From a virus (lineage: Duplodnaviria; Heunggongvirae; Uroviricota; Caudoviricetes), in IMG/VR virus record IMGVR_UViG_2534681761_000010: DNA of 44,374 nucleotides, one strand, 5' to 3'. Below are positions 7,785 through 16,908 of the stretch, in pieces. A model generated the notes under the pieces. The model worked only from the letters and a program-made list of their open reading frames with translations. It was not told where the DNA came from and ran no database searches. A program made the position numbers and the translations under genes. The first letter of the stretch is position 1. Each line of letters begins with the position of its first letter.

Positions 7785-9134
7785 TTATTCCGTTTTACAT
7801 ATCATAGTAGTCGATTGGAGAATATAGTTTCTGGGAATGTACTCTTCAAAGTGTTCGTCCTTTTTAAATACATGAACTACATTTGGGAATAATTGATAGT
7901 CAACAGGGTGTATAGCGTTTGGATTATGGTACATGTACATGGCTGTACACCATGGTTCTTGATAGTTAGGGTCACTTACATCGGCTGAAAATGGATGTGG
8001 GGCTGCATCCTGATCAGTTTTAACACCACTGACGTACACTTTGAATCCACTCGCCTCTACACCTGCAAGAATTCCCATCCGGTTAAACTTAGGTATGGTT
8101 GCTTGAGTAGTGAGTAAAACGGCAGAAACATAATTATTTTGTTCTGAGCCAAAAAAGTTCGACTTGATACTTCTATTTTCATCTGTATGTCTTTCAATAG
8201 AAATGCCTGACTCAATATCAATCCCGTACAAATAGCTATGCAAGGCTTCGCTTGAGAAGGCCATGGACATTCTTTTTGAATAATCCTGCATTGCTATGAC
8301 AAATGGTTTGTTCTTTGTATGGTTGAGTTCCCAGTAATGAACTTTCTCTGGCTCAGGGCAATGCCGGACTTTTTTTAATAAACTTCTTGCAAACTTAAAA
8401 GGCATGACATTTAGAACATGTTTTCTTAATTCATCCATCTGTTCATCGTTAATGACTTTTCTTTCAAGAGGGGCTTCTGCTTCAGCAATGCTTACAGCCT
8501 CTACAGCAATTTCCACTCCAAATTTAGATAGCAGAAAATCTGGTTGATTGTATTCTCTATTCATTTCAAAGTCGAGTTCATAAAATACAGCGTTCAAATA
8601 TAATTCAAATAACCTTGAATTAAATGCATCACTTTGAAAATCCCTTATAAATATTCCATCAGGATCTTTGAACCAGTATGCAAGTTCCTCAAGAACAATA
8701 TATGCAGGGAAATGAAGAGGGTCTTCGAGGAGCATTTTTATATAAACATTCCTTTTTTTCGCTGGGACCTTACTCAAGAATAATGAAAAAGGTTTGGTTG
8801 ATTCATCGCCTTGCATGAATGTACCATTTTGGTGCTGCGCCAGCATCTTTGGTATGTCATCGTTCAAATTATTAAGCAAGACATCCATTGAATCAAATGA
8901 AGCCAAGACGTTTATTGCTCTGAATTTTTTATCTAAATCCCGACCTAAGACTATTGCGTTAAAATCTTTATCAATATTGCATATGATTATTGTGGATAAC
9001 AATGTTATCCCATTCCCCTCATATTTAAACCAGCGTATCTCCTCAGAAAATGTCTTAAGGTAAGGTGAGCGACCGTAAAAATAAATATCAAATTGTTCTT
9101 TGCTGATCTCACTGAAGTGTAATCCTGCGTTCAT
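7785..9134 (-). CDS. Hypothetical 449-aa protein (AT-rich cargo gene; no motif recognised)
   Basis: Long ORF with AAGGA SD; AT-rich; divergent from the small recombinase gene. Confidence 0.55.
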   Translation of the reverse strand: MNAGLHFSEISKEQFDIYFYGRSPYLKTFSEEIRWFKYEGNGITLLSTIIICNIDKDFNAIVLGRDLDKKFRAINVLASFDSMDVLLNNLNDDIPKMLAQHQNGTFMQGDESTKPFSLFLSKVPAKKRNVYIKMLLEDPLHFPAYIVLEELAYWFKDPDGIFIRDFQSDAFNSRLFELYLNAVFYELDFEMNREYNQPDFLLSKFGVEIAVEAVSIAEAEAPLERKVINDEQMDELRKHVLNVMPFKFARSLLKKVRHCPEPEKVHYWELNHTKNKPFVIAMQDYSKRMSMAFSSEALHSYLYGIDIESGISIERHTDENRSIKSNFFGSEQNNYVSAVLLTTQATIPKFNRMGILAGVEASGFKVYVSGVKTDQDAAPHPFSADVSDPNYQEPWCTAMYMYHNPNAIHPVDYQLFPNVVHVFKKDEHFEEYIPRNYILQSTTMICKTE

Positions 9135-9256
9135 ACCAATTCCTTTTCAATGAATAATTGGCCTTTAGGAGTGATTCCCTTTGTCTTTAATTCAGTTCTA
9201 ACTAGTTCTTTAATCCAATAGCCTAAGCTCATCATGCAGTTGGATCATAAGACAAC

Positions 9257-9285
9257 GCCCTATAGTGCTCGTGATACTATAGGGC
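9257..9285. promoter_or_regulatory. Perfect inverted repeat GCCCTATAGT-N9-ACTATAGGGC in divergent intergenic region
   Basis: 10-bp perfect arms with 9-nt spacer, between the 449-aa gene and the recombinase gene. Confidence 0.4.
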
Positions 9286-9419
9286 ATCTGACCACACTGT
9301 TAACTGGAGTAACGACTATGGCAGGAATACAGCATAACCAAACTCACCCCAAACTTACATAGCGCTTTCTGGCCGTGAGCATAACAAGGTCCACTCCTCG
9401 CTCATAAGGGACAACCATA

Positions 9420-9450
9420 CTCAAATCTCCCACATTGCAGGAGATTTGAG
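9420..9450. promoter_or_regulatory. Perfect inverted repeat CTCAAATCTCC-N9-GGAGATTTGAG overlapping the recombinase Shine-Dalgarno
   Basis: 11-bp perfect arms; right arm contains the GGAG SD, ending 1 nt before ATG at 9452. Confidence 0.45.
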
Positions 9451-9451
9451 T

Positions 9452-10054
9452 ATGAACACGTCACCGTGGAACAAAGACCGTATCATAGGCCAAAAAAGAC
9501 CACTTCAGATATCTCATATCTGGGGTATCCGAATCCGACTTGAACTGGAAGGTAAAACTCGCGATTTAGCTCTGTTCAACATGGCCCTGGATAGTAAGCT
9601 TCGAGGCTGTGATCTGGTCAAACTCAAAGTATCTGATGTTGCATATGGTGGCTCTGTTTCAAGCAGAGCAACGGTGTTGCAACAGAAAACCGGTAGCCCT
9701 GTTCAATTTGAGATAACCAAAGGGACAAGAGAAGCTGTTGCTGCATTGATACAGCTTAGCAATTTGCACAGTAAAGACTTCTTGTTTCGGTCTAGGGTCG
9801 GAACTAACCAGCACATTTCAACCCGGCAATACAACCGAATCTTTCATGGGGGGGTAGAAAAGCTTGGTCTCGAAGATTCGCTTTACAGCACACATTCCAT
9901 GAGAAGAACAAAACCTTACCTGATCTACAAGAAAACCAAGAATCTCCGGGTGATCCAACTTCTGTTGGGTCATAAGAAACTGGAAAGCACAGTCCGTTAT
10001 CTGGGCATTGAAGTCGATGATGCGTTAGAGATTTCTGAATCGATTGAAGTCTAA
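9452..10054 (+). CDS. Small tyrosine recombinase (FimB/FimE/Xer catalytic-domain size class, about 200 aa)
   Basis: Box I-like ALDSKLRGCDLVKLKVSDV (Arg), HSMRRT (H-x-x-R), LLGHKKLESTVRYLG (His..Tyr); too short to carry the arm-binding domain of phage integrases. Confidence 0.7.
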   Translation: MNTSPWNKDRIIGQKRPLQISHIWGIRIRLELEGKTRDLALFNMALDSKLRGCDLVKLKVSDVAYGGSVSSRATVLQQKTGSPVQFEITKGTREAVAALIQLSNLHSKDFLFRSRVGTNQHISTRQYNRIFHGGVEKLGLEDSLYSTHSMRRTKPYLIYKKTKNLRVIQLLLGHKKLESTVRYLGIEVDDALEISESIEV

Positions 10055-10060
10055 GGTTGT

Positions 10061-10082
10061 CAGGGCTGCAACAGCAGCCCTG
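10061..10082 (+). terminator. Stem-loop (9-bp perfect stem CAGGGCTGC, 4-nt loop) directly after recombinase stop; no U-tract
   Basis: CAGGGCTGC-AACA-GCAGCCCTG starting 7 nt after the stop codon. Confidence 0.3.
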
Positions 10083-10413
10083 TGCCATAAGCGGAAGTAT
10101 TTAACAACTATCAGTGTTGTTCAACAGATAAAGGGGCACTTGATTTTTTCTGTTCTCAGGAAATGATAAAAGCGCGTCGGTTCAAGCCTGCTTAACGGGA
10201 GTTTGTTAATCCTGTTGCCGTGACGTTTTGACACCATTATGATGGGGAGACACTTAATGTATGAAGGTTCCGCCACTTATACCTGTCCAACAACTGCCTC
10301 GGATGTTTCTTTGTATGAATAAGTGGTAATGAGTAGTGAATCGCTAACAGTCACCCGAACAATCGGTGCCTGCAATTAATTCTATATTCTAAACGAGGGG
10401 GAGATTATTACAC

Positions 10414-11394
10414 ATGAAATTTAAGGACAAGAACCTTAAGGCTCTCGCGGAATGTATCATAGGAGATAATAAGGCATTTCTGTATCGTTCAAGCAGTCAC
10501 ATCACTGAATTTTTCCAGGACTGCGGCATGGATGTTACTCATGACGGATCCACTCGGTGGAAATGGACGGCCCAGAGGCTTGAAGAACTTCTTTATGAGC
10601 CACAGTCAAAGCCACATACTTTGCCGGAAAGGTTTGTTCATGTGCTCAGAACTTTAATGTTAAAAGAAGATGCAATGGATGACGATCCAGGAAGATTAAA
10701 GGCGCTTGAAGAACTGAACAAGCCTTTGATGCGGGAAGGCTATGAGGCATTCTATGGTGACGATCGCCTTTTGTATATACGCCATACCGATACCAAAACG
10801 GTTTCAGTCAGTAATAACCCTCATCGGCCCTTAACGCCTCACGAAGTAGAATGCAGAAGGTTACTGACCGCGTTTCTTGATACCTGCTCAGAAGATGAGT
10901 TAATAGAAGATATTCTCCTTCCTTTATTCCGGCAACTTGGTTTTCACCGGATAACAGCAGTGGGACATAAAGATAAAGCGCTGGAATACGGGAAAGACAT
11001 CTGGATGAAGTTCACACTGCCAACTCAGCATGTTCTTTATTTCGGCATTCAGGCAAAAAAAGGTAAGTTGGATGCGTCCGGTGCCAGCAAATCTACGAAT
11101 TCAAACGTGGCAGAAATCTTCAACCAGGTACTGATGATGCTTGGCCATGAAATATTTGACCCAGAAACAAATAGAAAGGTGCTGGTAGATCATGCCTTTA
11201 TCGTTGCTGGCGGAGAAATTACTAAACAGGCGAGGAACTGGCTGGGCGGGAAACTTGATGCCAGCAAAAGAAGCCAGATAATATTTATGGACCGGGAAGA
11301 CATTCTTAATTTATATACTGTAAGTAATGTACCTCTGCCAACAGGTGCTCTCATCTCTGATGATGCCGTTAAGAACGATGATATTCCTTTCTAA
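10414..11394 (+). CDS. Hypothetical 326-aa protein, possible PD-(D/E)xK-like nuclease fold
   Basis: Strong SD GAGGGGGAG; motif GKDIWMKF...YFGIQAKKGK is compatible with D...(E/Q)xK but unverified. Confidence 0.5.
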   Translation: MKFKDKNLKALAECIIGDNKAFLYRSSSHITEFFQDCGMDVTHDGSTRWKWTAQRLEELLYEPQSKPHTLPERFVHVLRTLMLKEDAMDDDPGRLKALEELNKPLMREGYEAFYGDDRLLYIRHTDTKTVSVSNNPHRPLTPHEVECRRLLTAFLDTCSEDELIEDILLPLFRQLGFHRITAVGHKDKALEYGKDIWMKFTLPTQHVLYFGIQAKKGKLDASGASKSTNSNVAEIFNQVLMMLGHEIFDPETNRKVLVDHAFIVAGGEITKQARNWLGGKLDASKRSQIIFMDREDILNLYTVSNVPLPTGALISDDAVKNDDIPF

Positions 11395-11618
11395 TCAGAA
11401 GTACGTCTTTTTCTGAAAGAATACGTGATAGGTAGCCACACCACACCTTTAGTGACCCCTTAATCTGGTAATATAACAGCCCGTATGAATGTCCGCGGCA
11501 TCGCGGGCTGAAATTTATTAAAAATACTTATTCATCAAGCTGGAGTAGTTTGCCGAGTAACTGTAAACGCCCAACTTAACCGGACCATTCACTTTTAGAT
11601 TGCTACCAGCAAACCAAC

Positions 11619-11642
11619 TTCCGTTTCTCGCTCAAAGCGGAC
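11619..11642. repeat. 24-bp palindromic element copy C (TTCCGTTTC-TCGCTC-AAAGCGGAC)
   Basis: About 20 of 24 identical to B1 by eye, same spacer TCGCTC; marks the right edge of the AT-rich island. Confidence 0.55.
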
Positions 11643-12122
11643 TAGAAGGTTAGCTTGCGTCGGACTTGGCGTATTTAAAGAAGTGCTGGTGGTAACTGGT
11701 TGTTGTGTTCCATTTCTACAAAACAAAATCACAGAAACTATACCCAATAGTTATATTGAATCAATGATGAGACAGCCTCATATTTATCAGAACTGGTGTA
11801 CGTCCAATACAGGAGGTTGTCGTGCTGGTTCTCAAATATGCGCTAGCTATTGCGGCTGTAATGGCAATTTATTGTCTTGCTATTGTTCTTACGGATCGCC
11901 TTTCTGATTGATTTTATATTGGCGAGGTGACGGGAGTTAAGTAGAATTGCTGCGGGTGCTTGAGGCTATCTGCCTCAGGCATGAACACCAAAGGCAGATA
12001 GAGAAAAGCCCCAGTTAACATTACGCGTCCTGCAAGACGTTTAACATTAATCTGAGGCTCAATCTATGAACGGCAAATCTAGGTTAGCCTCTTACGTGCC
12101 GAAAGGCAAGGAGAAGCAGGCT

Positions 12123-12278
12123 ATGAAGCAGCAAAAGGCGATGTTAATCGCCCTGATCGTCATCTGTTTAACCGTCATAATGACGGCACTGGTAACGAGG
12201 AAAGACCTCTGCGAGGTACGAATCCGAACCGGCCAGACGGAGGTCGCTGTCTTCACAGCTTACGAACCTGAGGAGTAA
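12123..12278 (+). CDS. hok: Hok/Gef-family type I toxin (51 aa)
   Basis: MKQQKAMLIALIVICLTVI.TALVTRKDLCEVRIRTGQTEVAVFTAYEPEE matches the Hok family; AAGGAG SD; in-frame upstream extension from 12066 may be mok-like. Confidence 0.8.
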   Translation: MKQQKAMLIALIVICLTVIMTALVTRKDLCEVRIRTGQTEVAVFTAYEPEE

Positions 12279-16658: not shown

Positions 16659-16734
16659 GGCCCTTTAGCTCAGTGGTGAGAGCGAGCGACTCATAATCGC
16701 CAGGTCGCTGGTTCAAATCCAGCAAGGGCCACCA
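16659..16734 (+). tRNA. tRNA with CAU anticodon (tRNA-Ile2-like / Met)
   Basis: 76 nt; acceptor GGCCCTT/AAGGGCC, D-stem GCTC/GAGC, T-loop TTCAAAT, encoded CCA; resembles E. coli ileX as recalled. Confidence 0.8.
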
Positions 16735-16831: not shown

Positions 16832-16908
16832 GCGTTGTTAGCTCAGCCGGACAGAGCAATTGCCTTCTAAGCAATCGGTCACTGGTTCGAATCCAGTACA
16901 ACGCGCCA
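16832..16908 (+). tRNA. tRNA-Arg (anticodon UCU)
   Basis: 77 nt; acceptor GCGTTGT/ACAACGC, anticodon loop CTTCTAA, T-loop TTCGAAT, encoded CCA. Confidence 0.85.

Follow-up and report, generated by a model that had tools for sequence, protein, structure and literature searches.

Two perfect inverted repeats, each with a 9-nt spacer, stand ahead of a predicted recombinase gene in IMG/VR virus record IMGVR_UViG_2534681761_000010, a stretch of 44,374 nucleotides (the window) that represents a Qin-type lambdoid prophage integrated into ydfJ of E. coli. The question raised by this locus is whether the two repeats form one control region for the recombinase, and whether they act as RNA or as DNA. 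A previous interpretation made from the letters alone (the sequence-only reading) had placed them as a pair in a divergent promoter region, where the second repeat would either occlude the ribosome-binding site of the recombinase as RNA or serve as the operator of a dimeric regulator as DNA.

A repeat search confirmed both repeats, GCCCTATAGT-N9-ACTATAGGGC at 9257-9285 (inverted repeat A, IR-A) and CTCAAATCTCC-N9-GGAGATTTGAG at 9420-9450. The arm length of 10 bp reported for IR-A was correct, whereas the 11-bp arms at 9420-9450 proved to be the inner part of a longer repeat (IR-B) with perfect arms of 15 nt, CATACTCAAATCTCC at 9416-9430 and GGAGATTTGAGTATG at 9440-9454, around a 9-nt loop at 9431-9439 (plus strand). 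The right arm of IR-B consists of the Shine-Dalgarno sequence GGAG (9440-9443), which had been recognised before, an 8-nt spacer and the ATG start codon (9452-9454); the repeat had been said to stop 1 nt ahead of the ATG, but the start codon lies within it.

The frequency of perfect inverted repeats with spacers of 3-20 nt was compared between the window and block shuffles of it. Five repeats with arms of at least 10 nt were observed against 0.65 in the shuffles, one (IR-B) against 0.05 with arms of at least 12 nt, and one (IR-B) against 0 with arms of at least 15 nt. IR-B is far beyond chance. IR-A alone is at chance level, about 0.65 such repeats being expected per window, and it was accepted as real only because it is conserved and covaries in related sequences. 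No further copy of either palindrome was found elsewhere in the window; a third GCCCTATAGT at 1083-1092 has no partner arm, and 1.3 such matches are expected by chance. Rfam gave nothing at IR-A or IR-B, either in the whole window at the gathering score or in 9100-10150 at E <= 1.

The divergent geometry also stood, with the gene of the anti-phage system PD-T7-1 reaching 9134 on the minus strand and the recombinase gene starting at 9452 on the plus strand. The 317-bp spacer between them (9135-9451), however, is a mosaic of three unrelated pieces, and it appears to be the junction of two mobile modules and not one regulatory region. The pairing of the two palindromes was not upheld, since IR-A lies outside the recombinase module, appears to derive from a satellite and most likely folds on the opposite strand. 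Although both repeats had been seen, the main feature of the interval had been missed: a 24-bp recombination-type site at 9389-9412 (S3), which, together with the cassette system it reveals, is its most interesting content.

The recombinase gene and its leader hairpin

The gene downstream of IR-B (9452-10054, plus strand) encodes a protein of 200 aa that matched PF00589 at 2e-17, with a score of 63.9 bits against a cut-off of 27.1. Residues R51, K79, H148, R151, H174 and Y183 were invariant in 15 diverse homologues, and their catalytic roles were assigned by eye from the alignment. These features place the protein, as judged from its sequence, in the tyrosine recombinase superfamily. It aligned to residues 131-279 of XerD only, i.e. 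to the catalytic domain, and therefore lacks a core-binding domain. The cut-offs of more specific models were not reached, whether for XerC (44.7 against 335) and XerD (27.6 against 330), for integron integrases (TIGR02249, 17.2 against 265; NF011946, 17.6 against 435) or for Fim invertases (NF007371, 27.5 against 222; NF007370, 19.2 against 221). Among solved structures, phmmer returned no match and a profile search reached Xer catalytic domains only. More than 8000 homologues, 77-98% identical, were found in Enterobacterales, Pseudomonas, Idiomarina, Alteromonas and Colwellia.

The gene is part of a portable module with sharp homology ends (9399-10087, plus strand), composed of the centre of S3, IR-B, the recombinase gene, a 3' hairpin and the centre of a further site, S4. 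Homology starts at CGCTCATAAGGGAC, 17 nt ahead of IR-B, and stops at ...GCAGCCCTGTGCCA, 33 nt past the recombinase stop codon. The module was about 93% identical in about 750 further E. coli genomes, and matches to it were present in 932 of 5426 E. coli genomes, on chromosomes as well as plasmids, next to neighbours that were unrelated from copy to copy (DUF4145, ETEC_3214, CBS-domain genes and others). The same upstream and downstream layout and the same boundaries were found in 80 loci from other species or genera. IR-B is invariant in the E. coli copies of the module, and IR-A lies outside them.

Folding of the RNA leader (9399-9480) gave -27.1 kcal/mol with a z-score of -5.25. Leaders from 69 loci, ranging from Enterobacterales to Alteromonas, Colwellia and Idiomarina, comprised 40 distinct sequences, and the minimum-energy fold paired GGAG and AUG in all 40 despite differing arms; one enterobacterial clade, for instance, has CATAATCACATCTCC/GGAGATTGAGCATG, Colwellia has CATACTTAAGTCTCC/GGAGATTAATATG and Alteromonas has CATAATTATGTTTCC/GGAGACAAATCATG. 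The diverged arms showed C-G to U-A and A-U to G-C exchanges, plus bulges. In an alignment of 25 diverse leaders, 88.8% of cells were paired, compared with 34-44% when the partner columns were slid. Double-sided changes occurred in 9 cells (matched by 4 of 500 shuffles) and the covariation score was 0.153 versus 0.130 (matched by 5 of 500 shuffles); the shuffles ignore phylogeny, and 4-5 of 500 is thus not a p-value and amounts to moderate support. Arms of IR-B were never found away from recombinase leaders.

The strand on which IR-B folds was judged from its non-Watson-Crick cells, fold energies of the sense and antisense strands being unsuited to this purpose as loop and terminal energies dominate them. 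The 23 leaders of 15-9-15 geometry held G.U in 19 cells (9 events) and A.C in 7 (2 events) on the sense strand, a bias with p = 0.03 by cells and 0.065 by events. This excess of G.U fits a sense-strand RNA, as a palindrome acting in duplex DNA predicts equal numbers of the two. With compensatory and wobble changes keeping the hairpin across genera, the occlusion of the ribosome-binding site that had been proposed for the RNA gained support, and we consider IR-B to be, somewhat more probably than not, an RNA hairpin that blocks initiation of recombinase translation. IR-B is followed by AACACGUC and not by a U-tract, was not flagged by an intrinsic-terminator scan and does not qualify as a terminator.

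In an RNA entering the module from outside, the left arm would pair with GGAG, the 8-nt spacer and AUG, and the 15-bp stem would stop 30S binding, with the result that no recombinase would be made from read-through transcripts, whatever the genomic context. The tight gating of the recombinase put forward in the sequence-only reading stays an inference. Productive mRNA may instead start inside the hairpin. The left arm opens with CATACT, which resembles a -10 element, and the A and T of the corresponding consensus CATAMT are invariant though their pairing partners vary, with A.C at one such pair in 11 of 25 leaders; the constraint on them would therefore be other than pairing. CATAMT agrees with the -10 hexamer at positions 2, 3, 4 and 6. 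A weak promoter with this -10 might give a transcript without the left arm, and an RNA from 9427, about 7 nt downstream of CATAMT, had no significant structure; such an mRNA would be unstructured and translatable, in the same way as in the 'fold-back inhibition' of IS10.

The other end of the module may be insulated by the 3' hairpin, CAGGGCTGC-AACA-GCAGCCCTG at 10061-10082 (plus strand), whose right arm is at the same time the left arm of S4. It is GC-rich, begins 6 nt past the recombinase stop codon and has no U-tract; it is conserved in the 80 loci across genera and is fully compensated in Colwellia and Pseudoalteromonas (GAGGCAGA-TAAT-TCTGCCTC). It may serve either as the 3' end of an RNA or as an arm in the DNA.

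A hairpin that hides the start site of a recombinase is by itself a familiar trick of mobile elements. According to a passage of PMC13181058 that cites Davis, Simons and Kleckner 1985, the translation signals of the transposase are sequestered in secondary structure in IS10 and IS3. As in the fold-back inhibition of IS10/Tn10 described there (also IS50 and IS3), the recombinase gene here lies near one end of a mobile module, and an inverted repeat is predicted to pair the ribosome-binding site and start codon in outside transcripts, guarding against accidental activation. Unlike IS10/Tn10, the enzyme here is a tyrosine recombinase and not a DDE transposase, the hairpin is not the terminal inverted repeat of the element, and the internal promoter is deduced from the invariant -10-like CATAMT.

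Several points, in addition to the phylogeny-blind shuffles, weigh against a translation block. A promoter scan gave no credible -35 ahead of the candidate -10 CATAMT, so that the internal promoter is guesswork and the recombinase might just be silent. Covariation of the arms would equally be expected of a DNA palindrome, and the strand bias by which RNA can be told from DNA is modest (9 versus 2 events). Most Enterobacterales copies are near-identical, so that independent evidence comes from few diverged lineages. Finally, the length of the loop is conserved at 9-10 nt, which the RNA model does not need.

The last of these points would suit a duplex-DNA operator, at which a dimeric repressor, supplied by the host or identical with the recombinase itself, shuts a promoter overlapping the left arm. 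Such an operator would explain why IR-B is a perfect palindrome, why its spacer keeps a length of 9-10 nt while the spacer sequence drifts, and why CATAMT in the left arm is invariant. We nevertheless regard it as improbable. The module codes for the recombinase only and has no regulator gene, and the arms of IR-B are unlike the GTCCGCT arms of the recombinase-associated sites. In addition, covariation of the arms between genera misfits a conserved host repressor, diverged lineages carry bulges and unequal arms (15 versus 13-14 nt), the palindrome is always anchored exactly on the Shine-Dalgarno sequence and AUG, and the sense-strand mismatches lean to G.U. The operator proposed in the sequence-only reading is disfavoured for IR-A as well, the arms of both repeats covarying instead of keeping a fixed sequence. 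A role of IR-B as a recombination or accessory site, attI-like and possibly folded as a single strand in the manner of integron attC, is more improbable still: IR-B lies 4 nt from S3, its arm-spacer-arm geometry resembles a core site and the wobble bias would also fit folded top-strand DNA, but the homology breakpoints fall in S3 and S4 and none in IR-B, its arms never recur at cassette ends (two reasons for which a core site was rejected), its 9-nt spacer exceeds the 6-nt centre of the sites here, and its right arm is made of translation signals.

The 9-6-9 sites and the cassette system

Repeat analysis revealed 24-bp imperfect palindromes at every gene junction of a 5.4-kb, four-gene island (6232-11642), which lies between a DUF977 replication-region gene and hokD/sok, and none elsewhere in the 44-kb window. 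All share a 9-6-9 design, with arms GTCCGCTnn/nnAGCGGAC and a centre that is either TCGCTC (A-type) or GTGCCA (B-type), here given on the plus strand. The left end of the island is the B-type site S1 (GTCCGCTTT-GTGCCA-AGAGCGGAC, 6232-6255), inside which homology to the phage backbone stops. The junction at 7406-7471 consists of the A-type site S2a (7406-7429) and the B-type site S2b (7448-7471), separated by an 18-nt spacer. S3 (GTCCACTCC-TCGCTC-ATAAGGGAC, 9389-9412) lies between IR-A and IR-B; its left arm varies with the neighbouring cassette, and its centre and right arm stay fixed along with the recombinase module. The converse applies to the B-type site S4 (AGCAGCCCT-GTGCCA-TAAGCGGAA, 10073-10096), where the left arm and the centre stay fixed along with the module and it is the right arm that changes according to the cassette downstream; in strain CRE1493, homology to that cassette begins at 10081. 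The right end of the island is the A-type site S5 (TTCCGTTTC-TCGCTC-AAAGCGGAC, 11619-11642), at whose centre backbone homology resumes, more than 1300 E. coli genomes matching only from 11616-11628 on, i.e. the backbone half of S5. S3 would be one of six 9-6-9 sites at which cassettes of this and related islands were exchanged.

Comparison between genomes showed that homology breaks at the arm/centre boundary, in S3 and S4 for the recombinase module and in S1 and S5 for the phage backbone. Between the same backbone half-sites, strain 120899 carries a different single-gene cassette (locus L006, 1930-2975) and strain A20 a gene-less module of 230 bp (locus L191, 480-750). A truly empty phage site lacking any cassette was not found, BL21-AI having a deletion and A20 the gene-less module.

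Across the loci analysed, the type of a site followed its orientation relative to the recombinase gene. The centre was TCGCTC in 134 of 149 sites oriented with the gene and TGGCAC (GTGCCA on the plus strand) in 54 of 69 sites of opposite orientation. An alternative assignment, with a B site expected at the 5' end and an A site at the 3' end of every cassette gene, was tried and proved wrong. A cassette junction has the form arm-TCGCTC-arm, 14-19 nt, arm-GTGCCA-arm, of which 26 distinct examples were collected. The recombinase module takes the place of the short junction spacer, its flanking sites each having one divergent arm, and the recombinase gene always lies between one A-type and one B-type site. 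Site density was 2.35-4.1 per 10 kb in recombinase loci versus 0.16 in 1.0 Mb of recombinase-free prophage and satellite DNA, a 15-25-fold enrichment near the recombinase; shuffles contained none. In three loci (L073, L077 and L008) two recombinase modules, or a second remnant made of S3 plus the left arm, were present within 12 kb.

Eighty-nine modules delimited by a B-type and an A-type site had a median length of 1.6 kb and usually held one or two reading frames, and their 149 reading frames fell into 130 clusters. Many were known defence systems, among them Tmn, Septu PtuA, PARIS AriA/AriB, NsnA, PD-T4-2, Ppl and dCTPase, as well as a CBASS cyclase accompanied by a 4TM effector, restriction enzymes of types II and IV and Lamassu LmuB. 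Other cargo comprised GNAT, MFS, LysR, AraC, TetR, SDR and hydrolase genes.

Association with the sites and the positions of the breakpoints are what points to recombination by this enzyme at the 9-6-9 sites. Tentatively, and at a little less than even odds, the recombinase and its two heterospecific sites may constitute a self-encoded, apparently undescribed cassette-exchange platform across Gammaproteobacteria. If so, one- to two-gene cassettes might be shuffled between lambdoid prophages, P4- and phage-inducible chromosomal island (PICI)-type satellites, plasmids and chromosomes; they might behave like a natural form of recombinase-mediated cassette exchange; and IR-B might silence the recombinase at any place where the module is inserted. 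No published account of the recombinase and its sites turned up in a literature search, which returned integron, dif-module, GMT and serine-recombinase papers only and whose full-text coverage was thin on subscription journals, making this weak evidence.

The 24-bp repeats could, in principle, be bidirectional terminators or elements similar to repetitive extragenic palindromes (REP), with the recombinase an unrelated passenger and the mosaic produced by homologous recombination. The repeats are indeed hairpin-forming palindromes between genes, they occur in more than 1300 lambdoid prophages against only 932 genomes with the recombinase, and no circular or excised forms were observed. This explanation is unlikely, however, given the strict 9-6-9 geometry, the two types of centre each tied to one orientation in the proportions given above, the lack of T-tracts at the sites, their 15-25 times higher density around the recombinase, the breaks in homology at the arm/centre boundary and the constant position of the recombinase gene between an A-type and a B-type site.

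Among known systems, the dif modules of Acinetobacter plasmids show alternately oriented arm-6-arm sites, two alternating module types and a backbone that itself forms a module; adjacent pairs of modules are excised, and single modules move by cointegrate formation and resolution (PMC13141974). The arrays described here are similar in having modules of one to two genes, short arm-6 bp-arm sites that alternate in orientation, two alternating kinds of module, the backbone as a module, breakpoints within the sites and very diverse cargo. They differ in that the sites are 9-6-9 (24 bp) and unrelated in sequence to dif, which is 11-6-11 (28 bp), and in that the array holds its own recombinase, consisting of a catalytic domain only, whereas dif modules use the host XerC/XerD. 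Furthermore, each orientation has its own centre (TCGCTC or GTGCCA); this should work against A x B inversion and leave A x A and B x B as the only events, as in engineered heterospecific exchange. Unlike in dif modules, most junctions hold a pair of sites separated by 14-19 nt, the arrays are found in Enterobacterales, Alteromonadales and Pseudomonas, on prophages, satellites, plasmids and chromosomes, and the cargo is rich in anti-phage systems. The system thus appears to work like dif modules, which does not by itself make it a member of the Xer/dif family.

With integrons, the system shares a tyrosine recombinase beside an array of short, mostly single-gene and very diverse cassettes that include defence systems, imperfect palindromes bounding each cassette, and a site next to the recombinase gene with a distinct arm. 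It is not considered an integron because the integrase models failed and attC sites are lacking; the protein has neither the IntI-specific insertion nor an N-terminal domain, and the sites have no attC organisation or GTTRRRY cores. Also unlike integrons, cassettes flank the recombinase gene on either side, their genes pointing either way, and the sites are of two heterospecific types. The FimB/FimE invertases are likewise tyrosine recombinases of about 200 aa without a separate core-binding domain, acting at short sites with 9-bp repeats. Their model cut-offs, however, were missed (19-27 bits versus 221-222), and in place of a single invertible promoter segment the sites here flank many different cassettes.

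The recombinase module and the 24-bp sites mark this cassette system in about one in six complete E. coli genomes, as well as in many further Gammaproteobacteria. If the recombinase moves cassettes, this would account for the spread of individual defence genes such as PD-T7-1 from one prophage or satellite hotspot to another, and the sites and recombinase would provide a simple sequence signature for mining new defence genes. The system would then be a second natural example, with an enzyme of its own, of the puzzling gene shuffling seen in dif modules, and the IR-B hairpin would be a control point for its timing.

The satellite-derived stem-loop IR-A

IR-A (9257-9285, minus strand) belongs to a 131-bp fragment (9247-9377) that shares 77-82% identity with the leader and the opening codons of Icd-like genes of satellites. 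A distant search revealed its relatives in about 175 E. coli genomes, as genes annotated 'host cell division inhibitor Icd-like protein', in a satellite layout of int - HTH (helix-turn-helix) - Abi - YlcI on one side and Icd-like - DUF4222 - primase/helicase on the other. The full icd-like gene measures 366 bp (loci L088 and L089). In the window it is cut to a frame of 14 codons (9318-9362, plus strand), preceded by its own GGAG and closed by TAG where the satellites have TAC, and the satellite homology ends at the cassette boundary. This stump indicates that the PD-T7-1 cassette was cut from the control region of a P4/PICI-type satellite. IR-A thus has no apparent link to the recombinase; by all indications it came, along with the PD-T7-1 cassette, from the region that controls the icd-like gene in such a satellite.

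Alignment with the satellites showed the stem of IR-A to be kept by compensatory changes, from TATAG/CTATA to TAGG/CCTA and CGCA/TGCA. A scan of IMG/VR with the conserved icd-like start returned 101 stretches; their upstream regions comprised 51 unique sequences, which came down to 39 over the segment of the stem-loop. RNAalifold, applied to 28 sequences, predicted 11 pairs, 5 of which contained double changes; one pair was CG in 9, GC in 8, UA in 6 and AU in 1. The non-standard cells on the plus strand were A.C or C.A in 11 cases versus G.U in 1. A.C on the plus strand being equivalent to G.U on the minus strand, the stem would tolerate wobble on the minus strand, and IR-A most likely folds in a minus-strand RNA. 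The minus-strand hairpin is followed by the tail GUUGUCUU, with 5 U in 8 nt, and precedes the start codon of PD-T7-1, a gene of that strand, by 123 nt. It was not flagged by the intrinsic-terminator scan, whose 8-nt loop limit is exceeded by its 9-nt loop, and the z-score of its fold was -1.6 to -2.3.

A minus-strand promoter, TTAACA-16-TATAGT, was also tried as the reason for IR-A and rejected. The -10-like TATAGT lies inside the right arm of IR-A and is not conserved, satellites reading CCTAGG or TGCAGG there.

Carried with the 14-codon stump in the PD-T7-1 cassette, IR-A may act as a terminator or leader ahead of PD-T7-1. That it still works for this gene, setting the level of the defence gene as a minus-strand terminator or attenuator of transcripts from the satellite-derived promoter region, or as the 3' stem-loop of a small cis-antisense RNA, instead of being a fossil, is conceivable, although we think it rather unlikely. 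Its minus-strand folding, GUUGUCUU directly after the hairpin and the PD-T7-1 start at the distance given above would all suit such a function, as would the fact that the retained fragment stops just past the hairpin and that a minus-strand YlcI/Abi operon follows the hairpin in satellites. Weak Rfam matches of the satellite homologue (L088, 3004-3081) point the same way: SymR on the minus strand with 27.1 bits (E = 0.0076) and R1162 antisense RNA with 26.0 bits, which overlap on opposite strands of the leader. These scores, however, fall far under the gathering scores of 61 and 55; in addition, no promoter was identified, the icd-like gene that any antisense RNA would target is truncated here, and the fold z-score is modest. 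The satellite homologue did not match Rfam C4 even at E <= 1, and 9100-10150 did not match C4, SymR or the R1162 antisense RNAs at E <= 1. The matches give hints of an undescribed cis-antisense RNA in these satellites.

A passage of PMC8546580 describes the immI region of P1, in which a processed antisense RNA (c4) controls the icd/ant operon. IR-A is comparable in coming from a structured leader directly upstream of the Icd-like ribosome-binding site of satellites. Unlike P1 immI, SymR and the R1162 counter-transcribed RNA (ctRNA), however, neither the IR-A region nor the satellite leader belongs to an Rfam family at the gathering score, and, unlike in P1 immI, the icd-like gene is cut to 14 codons here and the antisense target is gone.

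Other genes of the island and the prophage

The cargo of the cassette between S2b and S3 is the PD-T7-1 gene (7785-9134, minus strand), encoding a protein of 449 aa that matched its PADLOC model at 7.3e-157 and nearly end to end, residues 8-447 aligning with profile positions 2-448 of 452. PD-T7-1 is among the systems obtained by functional selection by Vassallo et al. (PMC9519451). The two remaining genes of the island, encoding proteins of 314 aa (6293-7237, minus strand) and 326 aa (10414-11394, plus strand), had no Pfam, NCBIfam or credible PADLOC match, and they are candidates for unrecognised defence genes. By eye, the 314-aa protein seems to have an N-terminal GIY-YIG-like motif (GVYLI...YVG...R..EH) and the 326-aa protein a PD-(D/E)xK-like stretch (GKDIW...IQAKKG).

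Directly to the right of the island, 11954-12278 holds the antisense RNA sok (111.7 bits in Rfam) and the reading frame of the toxin gene hokD. In lambdoid prophages this pair is the conserved backbone on the right-hand side of the cassette hotspot. The Rfam matches in the whole window were sok and two tRNAs only, all away from the repeats. The two tRNA genes (16659-16731 and 16832-16905) lie in the late region of the prophage, where RefSeq lists tRNA-Ile, tRNA-Thr and tRNA-Gly for the same prophage.

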